NCBI RefSeq assembly: GCF_045037415.1
Contig: NZ_CP173438.1
DNA: 64,000 nt
Strand: one strand, 5' to 3'
DNA from: Escherichia coli
GTDB lineage: Bacteria; Pseudomonadota; Gammaproteobacteria; Enterobacterales; Enterobacteriaceae
Below, piece by piece: positions 62,301-64,000 of this stretch; within the stretch, counting starts at the first letter, position 1; each line of letters begins with the position of its first letter. The position numbers are program-made.

Positions 62301-64000
62301 GAATTTCTCTGCCAAAATCAGTCAGATCGCGACAATTATGCACACCTGTCAGATCGCAGAATGCCTCATCAATACTGTAAATCTCGACGCGGGGCGATAG
62401 TTCTTCCAGCGTCGACATCACCCGATTACTCATGTCTGCGTAAAGCTCATAATTGCTGCTAAAGCAAACCACGCCACAGCGACGAAACAGATCTTTTTGT
62501 TTGAACCAGGGATCGCCCATTTTAACGCCCAGCGCCTTTGCCTCAGCGTTTCGGGCGATAACGCAACCGTCATTATTCGATAGCACAACCACCGGTTTAC
62601 CCCATAAATCAGGGCGAAACACCGTCTCACAGCTGGCATAAAACGCGTTTACATCACAGAGGGCAAACATCAGCGCATCGCCTTAACGACGTGGATCACC
62701 ACACCAAAGACATCCAGCGTATCTTCGCTACTGATGGTAATGGGCGAGTACGCACTGTTCATAGGAATAAGCTGTACCGTCGGGCGTAGTTGCAATTTTT
62801 TCACCGTAAACTCGCCGTCAACAGCAGCGATGATAATATCACCATGGCTGGCGGTAATAGCGCTATCGACAATCAGTAAATCACCGTCACTAATCCCACC
62901 ATCAATCATAGAATCACCACTTGCTTTGACGAAATAAGTCGCGCTGGGATGCTGGATCAACAGTTGATTCAGATCGATGCGCTGTTCAACGTAATCTGCG
63001 GCCGGTGAAGGAAAGCCACACTGAACAAGATCGCTAAATAGCGGAAAAGTCACAATTTCGCGGAGATCCGCAGGCTTGATAAACAACATAATAATCTGCC
63101 TGAAGTTATACTGTTTTTATATACAGTAGTCTGTTCTTGTCAGCAGATCAATACTGATTCAGGCTATCAATATTTGTCGCTGCATAGACTGCTGATTTTT
63201 CGTTCTCTTATCCTGTGCTCACGCGGCCTTCTGGCGACAGCGTCCATCCAGCAGAAAGGAAAAATATCACCTGGTTTAAAATAGAATCGAAGCATTCGCC
63301 CAGAAAGGCATTCTCATTAAGGTACTGGATGACGGCATCAAGAAACTGTGTTCTATTGCTGCGGGCGTAGTTGAAGGGAAACTGATTCCAGAATTGAAGA
63401 ACAAGTTAAAATCTGTGCAGAGTTTCTTTACCACCCTGTCTAACACGGTTAAACAAGCGAATAAAGATATCGATGCCGCCAAATTGAAATTAACCACCGA
63501 AATAGCCGCCATCGGGGAGATAAAAACGGAAACTGAAACAGCCAGATTCTACGTTGATTATGATGATTTAATGCTTTCTTTACTAAAAGAAGCGGCCCAA
63601 AAAATGATTAACACCTGTAATGAGTATCAGAAAAGACACGGTAAGAAGACACTCTTTGAGATACCTGAAGTCTGATAAGCGATTATTCTCTCTATGTACT
63701 CAAGGTATAAAATTTATCACATTTAAAAATACAGACGTTTTTTAAAGATTGAGAGTTACCTGTTGATAATAAAGTATCGGGTAACTCTCATTATGACAGA
63801 GCGCTTTCAAAAACAGGGCTACGAAATGGCGAGCATCCAGACGTATATTAAGAAAGCCCCCATCAACATCTATTAAATTTATCACTGCGCCCAGTCAGGT
63901 TTATTTAAGATATGATCCTGCCAGTCAATCACTTCTGATTCTTTCACTGCGATATGACGCACAGAGATACGTTCACCATGCATTGCCGCTTTCGAACCAG

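Follow-up and report, generated by a model that had tools for sequence, protein, structure and literature searches.

The perfect inverted repeat between the hlyE remnant and ycgN of Escherichia coli is best explained, with a probability of roughly 0.55, as a stem-loop that defines the 3′ end of a mainly Rho-terminated ycgN transcript and blocks exonucleases. This explanation draws on a stable stem-loop, a K-12 3′ terminus located at it, transcription continuing beyond it, and a Rho-dependent stop about 80 nt further on. The ycgN-sense RNA would fold into an 11-bp stem-loop, which would define and protect the 3′ end of the mature ycgN mRNA. RNA polymerase would mostly pass the hairpin, and Rho would terminate ycgN transcription further downstream. 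The 3′-to-5′ exonucleases (PNPase, RNase II) would then trim the RNA as far as the hairpin, in the manner generally described for Rho-dependent transcripts of E. coli. The hairpin could have the same role for the hlyE transcripts of the + strand, when hlyE is expressed, because it is a perfect palindrome and the sole strong structure in the 206-bp convergent spacer.

The sequence-only reading had left two options, an RNA hairpin or a protein-binding palindrome. The RNA hairpin is favoured by the K-12 ycgN 3′ terminus, located 6-7 nt past the stem, and nothing was found in favour of protein binding. The element is an ordinary transcript-end hairpin, and both the ycgN 3′ end in K-12 and the fold are already present in a published genome-wide table; it is thus catalogued, yet it has not been the subject of an individual study. 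What is gained for the annotation of this strain is a defined 3′ end and a 3′ UTR for ycgN, and one more U-less stem-loop closing a Rho-terminated E. coli mRNA. The spacer beside the decayed hlyE toxin gene appears to hold neither a hidden regulator site nor the scar of a mobile element. Outside annotation, the importance of the hairpin is slight.

The inverted repeat and its folding

The repeat had been described at 63751-63789 of the window, which is the whole analysed stretch of 64,000 nucleotides, as two 10-bp arms separated by 19 nt. The sequence is present as described and the pairing is perfect, but the arms extend by one base per side to 11 bp (Table 1). G-C pairs make up 5 of the 11 pairs of the stem. 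An outer, imperfect inverted repeat (GTTTTTTAAAG at 63737-63747 and CTTTCAAAAAC at 63804-63814, 10/11 bases) is placed asymmetrically around the hairpin; it is built of A and U only and remains unused in the predicted minimum-energy folds. The stem is preceded by a U6 run on the + strand, and an A6 run follows it on the - strand.

Table 1. Coordinates of the hairpin and the features around it, in window numbering
Feature	Position	Strand	Description
Left arm, TGAGAGTTACC	63750-63760		Perfect inverted repeat; identical in K-12
Right arm, GGTAACTCTCA	63780-63790		100% complementary to the left arm
Loop, TGTTGATAATAAAGTATCG, 19 nt	63761-63779		Internal GATA/TATC mini-stem; polymorphic sites 63764, 63774, 63775
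ycgN-sense stem-loop	63750-63790	-	11-bp stem; -17.1 kcal/mol; z-score -6.2 to -6.6
Putative ycgN mRNA 3′ terminus	63743-63744	-	Coordinates transferred from K-12 1229414/1229415
ycgN 3′ UTR, about 140 nt	63743-63881	-	Delimited by the mapped end; first 70 nt common to MOD1-EC7003
Window equivalent of the Rho region peak	63664	-	PMC7815308 Supplementary file 2; about 80 nt beyond the mapped 3′ end
hlyE pseudogene, C-terminal remnant	63349-63675	+	Stop codon 75 nt upstream of the hairpin
ycgN coding sequence, 3′ part	63882-64000	-	Leaves the window at its end

The RNA of the + strand is predicted to fold with -19.5 kcal/mol into 13 pairs, including one G.U pair (z-score -5.5), and none of the 200 shuffled sequences of the control for the hairpin fold was as stable. 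The chance expectation was obtained by a first-order Markov simulation of the window, in which perfect 11-mer inverted repeats with a loop of 3-40 nt were counted. Such a model predicts 0.71 hits per 64 kb, which corresponds to about 0.002 for the 206-bp spacer, while 10 hits, representing 7 distinct repeats, are observed in the window. Of the six other perfect repeats of at least 11 bp, five directly follow the 3′ end of a gene; a U-tract is absent in three of these five. From the stability of the fold, the Markov expectation and this base rate of positions 3′ of genes, it follows that the inverted repeat is real, non-random and placed where such repeats usually mark gene ends.

The three repeats without a U-tract, located 3′ of genes at 52047-52094, 20916-20950 and 3966-3993, are likewise perfect, with arms of 11-12 bp and loops of 24, 11 and 6 nt, respectively. 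These probably represent further U-less 3′ stem-loops of this type.

The 3′ end of ycgN mRNA and termination by Rho

The genes at the end of the window are arranged in the order dsbB(+), umuC(-), umuD(-), hlyE remnant(+) and ycgN(-). The position of the repeat downstream of an hlyE remnant, claimed earlier, is borne out by the RefSeq annotation of the identical sequence of strain SK1144, in which the remnant ends at 63675 and carries the label 'hemolysin E, incomplete, missing N-terminus'. The hairpin is located between the convergent hlyE (+) and ycgN (-), about 92-132 nt beyond the ycgN stop codon (63882-63884) in the ycgN sense. RefSeq has no annotated feature in the hlyE-ycgN spacer, either in K-12 or in SK1144.

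The 3′ terminus was taken from the K-12 TRS data (PMC10687069, Supplementary Data 2 and 3). One table places it on the + strand of K-12 at 1229409-1229420, with the dominant position 1229415, as a 'Distant primary' terminus of ycgN (adjusted p of 1e-7, 2e-16 and 3e-6 in three libraries); the second gives 1229408-1229418 with the peak at 1229414. Supplementary Data 3 of the same work prints exactly this hairpin fold, with -17.1 kcal/mol. The K-12 hairpin occupies 1229368-1229408, and the mapped RNA ends 6-7 nt past the stem, at ...CUCUCA-AUCUUU(A). The stable stem-loop thus lies directly upstream of the mapped end, and the tail following the stem in the ycgN sense, AUCUUUAAAAAA, contains no U-rich tract.

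On the same strand, Adams et al. (PMC7815308) described a Rho termination region with the peak at 1229494 (Rho score 4.7, p 4e-12). The downstream/upstream reads of this region amount to 27/103 in untreated cells and 208/169 with bicyclomycin, so read-through increases upon Rho inhibition in the published data, at coarse resolution: the call is based on 800-nt windows, and its position is accordingly approximate. Antisense transcription induced by bicyclomycin in the H-NS-silenced hlyE region could also account for part of the Rho call. The C/G ratio of the ycgN-sense RNA, taken in 50-nt windows beyond the stem, amounts to about 1.0-1.3, with no clear rut-like bias. No end at the hairpin is present in the Term-seq 3′-end list of Adams et al. 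(PMC7815308), and the SMRT-Cappable-seq and TERMITe 3′-end sets have no entry for it. Because of its absence from the Term-seq list, the terminus is to be regarded as visible in only part of the data sets, and expression as low. The 3′ end on record at the hairpin belongs to the ycgN strand only. Little hlyE-sense signal is expected there, as this strain has only an hlyE pseudogene and K-12 hlyE is reported to be under H-NS repression (PMC2156107).

Such an arrangement resembles the one described by Dar and Sorek (PMC6061677), in which exonuclease trimming leaves the 3′ ends of Rho-dependent E. coli transcripts immediately past stable stem-loops without a U-tract. In both cases a stable stem-loop directly precedes a precise 3′ end with no U-rich tail, a Rho signal is located downstream on the same strand, and the structure is not a REP. 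Unlike those stem-loops, the ycgN hairpin has a long loop of 19 nt and a weak bias of C over G downstream, and it is a perfect palindrome between convergent genes, which could serve both strands. The trimming, described for those transcripts, is presumed for ycgN.

Distribution of the hairpin

The sequence-only reading had proposed a comparison with K-12 and a search for similar palindromes, with absence from related genomes as the finding that would speak against the element. The outcome is divided, as the hairpin is kept in essentially all E. coli, including K-12, but none of the other species examined has it. With a 71-nt query centred on the repeat, matches were obtained in 5410 of the 5426 complete E. 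coli genomes, all with at least 95% identity. The repeat occurs at a median of 1 place per genome across the 5410 genomes, and no second copy was found in E. coli. The arms of K-12 and of the window are identical, and one base of the loop differs (at 63774, where the window has A, and K-12, like most strains, has G). The variants retrieved are three substitutions in the loop and one in an arm, G63780A, which affects the innermost pair. With this arm change, the ycgN-sense RNA still pairs there, as G.U (-15.2 kcal/mol), and the hlyE-sense RNA has a C.A mismatch; since the sole arm variant keeps the pairing in the ycgN sense, it counts in favour of the protective stem-loop. Conservation within one species is no proof of selection, and the within-species diversity of these sequences is too low to provide it.

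Two E. coli strains have lost hlyE via IS elements (locus L093 of NZ_CP137696.1, 748-1500, and locus L003 of NZ_AP024205.1, 1872-2852). In one of them, the breakpoint on the IS1A side, where the similarity to the window resumes, is 3 nt from the left arm of the hairpin. The other carries the IS5-like ISEc68 in place of the region from umuD through 20 nt inside the ycgN 3′ end.

At the 80 ycgN-anchored loci of other Enterobacteriaceae, homology stops at the ycgN stop codon, with neither hlyE nor the repeat downstream. Only in Escherichia sp. MOD1-EC7003 does the homology continue, for 70 more bases (63812-63881). Because similarity to the window resumes there inside the 3′ end of umuC, at window position 61452, sequence comparison indicates that this locus is a deletion of umuDC plus hlyE and that 63812 is not the border of an insertion or islet. 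Where umuDC and hlyE stood, MOD1-EC7003 has 314 nt dissimilar to the window (L009, 3533-3846), with the last ~50 nt of umuC beside dsbB. Within the genus, the ycgN-umuD interval (L005, L006, L007, L008) varies. Downstream of ycgN there is 1.0-1.8 kb of different DNA in E. whittamii and Escherichia sp. E1V33, E. albertii has an apparent porin gene there, judged from the sequence only, and the locus of 'E. coli' SCPM-O-B-8794 contains two large ORFs of 415 and 272 aa.

The hlyE loci of other genera were compared as well, with the exception of L094 and L088, which look like error-laden assemblies. The repeat is absent from the Salmonella loci, whose homology ends 25 nt past the stop codon, and from the Trabulsiella locus, which is similar only up to about 14 nt short of the stop codon (window 63661); the P0060 locus has no homology beyond the coding sequence. 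With no homologue outside E. coli to compare, there is no cross-species covariation to draw on. Salmonella (on the osmC side) and Trabulsiella (AAAAAGACAACCCGC-N7-GCGGGTTGTCTTTTT) do have hairpins 40-80 nt after the hlyE stop, as E. coli does, with no sequence homology to the E. coli hairpin. The one of Trabulsiella is a textbook bidirectional terminator, whereas that of E. coli is not. The presence of non-homologous hairpins at the equivalent place after hlyE counts for a protective 3′ stem-loop.

The single copy also separates the hairpin from the REP/BIME elements. It shares with them the extragenic position at gene 3′ ends, the palindromic structure and the ability to protect mRNA from exonucleases, but REPs occur in hundreds of copies per genome and are unrelated in sequence. 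A scan of 63000-64000 against Rfam (E<=10) returned nothing credible on the repeat, and REP identity was rejected on its copy number and the missing Rfam match. The end of a mobile element or a MITE was rejected as well: there are no copies elsewhere, no partner repeat, and no true plasmid or phage hits. The plasmid records with the repeat hold the same locus with 96-100% identity, are large and non-mobilizable, three of them at 4.8-4.9 Mb, and look like chromosomal DNA filed as plasmids. No phage matches were obtained and no viral contig carried the repeat. The low-GC hlyE islet has no matching repeat at its end towards umuD, and no transposon-like ends. Searching metagenomes with the exact arms recovered the E. 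coli locus 31 times, together with 6 unrelated contigs representing 3 contexts (L117, L125, L131 and L134, ERZ17400xx; L103 and L109), with differing loops and flanks. Their number was judged to be around the chance level, by a rough estimate dependent on the size of the collection. Four related contigs among them, with the same 11-bp arms, even have a loop of 19 nt, which was judged a coincidence.

Alternative explanations and the surrounding hlyE region

The explanation closest to the protective stem-loop differs from it solely in who releases the polymerase. The hairpin with its AUCUUU tail may be a weak, non-canonical intrinsic terminator, which frees some polymerases and leaves the read-through to Rho, possibly with help from NusA/NusG or from head-on convergent polymerases, and with a UUAUGA tail acting for hlyE; such an arrangement is possible but doubtful. 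A mapped end 6-7 nt after the stem base, following AUCUUU, is at a distance typical of intrinsic termination and is also expected of a weak terminator. The first six tail bases include four U in the ycgN sense, a UUAU tail is present in the hlyE sense, the hairpin is placed between convergent genes, and Dar and Sorek considered that U-poor stem-loops may be inefficient intrinsic terminators with Rho as a backup (PMC6061677). Against this, bicyclomycin lifts the downstream coverage to or above the upstream level, which argues against much Rho-independent termination. The flanks AUCUUUAA and UUAUGACA have no U-tract, and a terminator scan of 63000-64000 gave 0 sites on either strand (U-tract criterion of at least 5 U in 8). 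A canonical intrinsic terminator was rejected, as the hairpin has neither the G+C-rich stem with a short loop (usually 3-8 nt, far below the 19 nt found here) nor the U-tract. A bidirectional terminator of the convergent genes was rejected too: an end is on record for one strand, and the flanking A/U tracts are in the reverse of the required orientation. A further reading is a two-way transcript-end element without U-tracts, kept since the acquisition of the hlyE islet and insulating ycgN from the H-NS-silenced hlyE, e.g., by collision-assisted termination, or also bound by protein as DNA; this is distinctly unlikely.

The repeat might also be a neutral palindrome, which arose by chance or by template switching in an AT-rich, horizontally acquired spacer and stalls exonucleases incidentally. 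Its confinement to E. coli, with no homologue by ycgN at the 80 other loci or by hlyE of Salmonella and Trabulsiella, agrees with such an origin, as do the 95-100% within-species identity, also expected of neutral DNA, and the lack of compensatory changes among the variants. It is nevertheless unlikely, given the expectation of ~0.002 repeats in the spacer, the transcript end mapped to the hairpin, and the location of most similar repeats of the window at gene 3′ ends. Very unlikely is a DNA palindrome for a dimeric or tetrameric protein, e.g., a regulator or a boundary factor of the H-NS-silenced hlyE islet. Perfect dyad symmetry, with 11-bp half-sites 30 bp apart centre to centre, about three helical turns, would suit such a protein, but the site has a single copy in the E. 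coli genome and no likeness to the SlyA, FNR/CRP, LexA, Fur, MqsA or Ter operators (compared by eye). It faces the 3′ ends of both genes, a position in which operators are seldom found, and G63780A breaks the symmetry of the DNA yet persists in some lineages. The published regulation of hlyE/clyA concerns the promoter side only, with nothing on the region downstream of the gene; primer p79 of PMC4164713 merely overlaps the repeat. Hardly credible at all is a 5′ element, either a promoter or a translation-control hairpin, of the 27-codon ORF MTERFQKQGYEMASIQTYIKKAPINIY at 63793-63876 (+). This ORF exists, with its ATG 2 nt after the stem, and a weak promoter-like TTTAAA-18-GATAAT ends in the loop; promoter-like matches are, however, at the chance level (2 found against 2.6 expected). 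The ORF lacks a Shine-Dalgarno sequence and is missing from the K-12 annotation, and its part shared with MOD1-EC7003 differs by 5 non-synonymous and 2 synonymous substitutions (counted by eye), which look neutral. A small gene at 63793-63876 was rejected on the same points.

The hlyE region itself, 63250-63675 (+), retains residues ~197-303 in addition to a short earlier fragment at 63290-63348. The sequence of the remnant is identical in the strains SK1144 and 'clone D i2', and it looks like the two-deletion clyA allele of B2/ExPEC strains (PMC4164713). Within the umuD-hlyE spacer, partly in the deleted hlyE promoter region of this strain, lies a full-length Rfam match to the C0299 sRNA (RF00119) at 63149-63227 (-), with 111.9 bits and an E-value of 3e-23. 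Upstream of umuD, the sequence tactgtttttatatacagta at 63107-63126 resembles the expected LexA box (CTGT-N8-ACAG).
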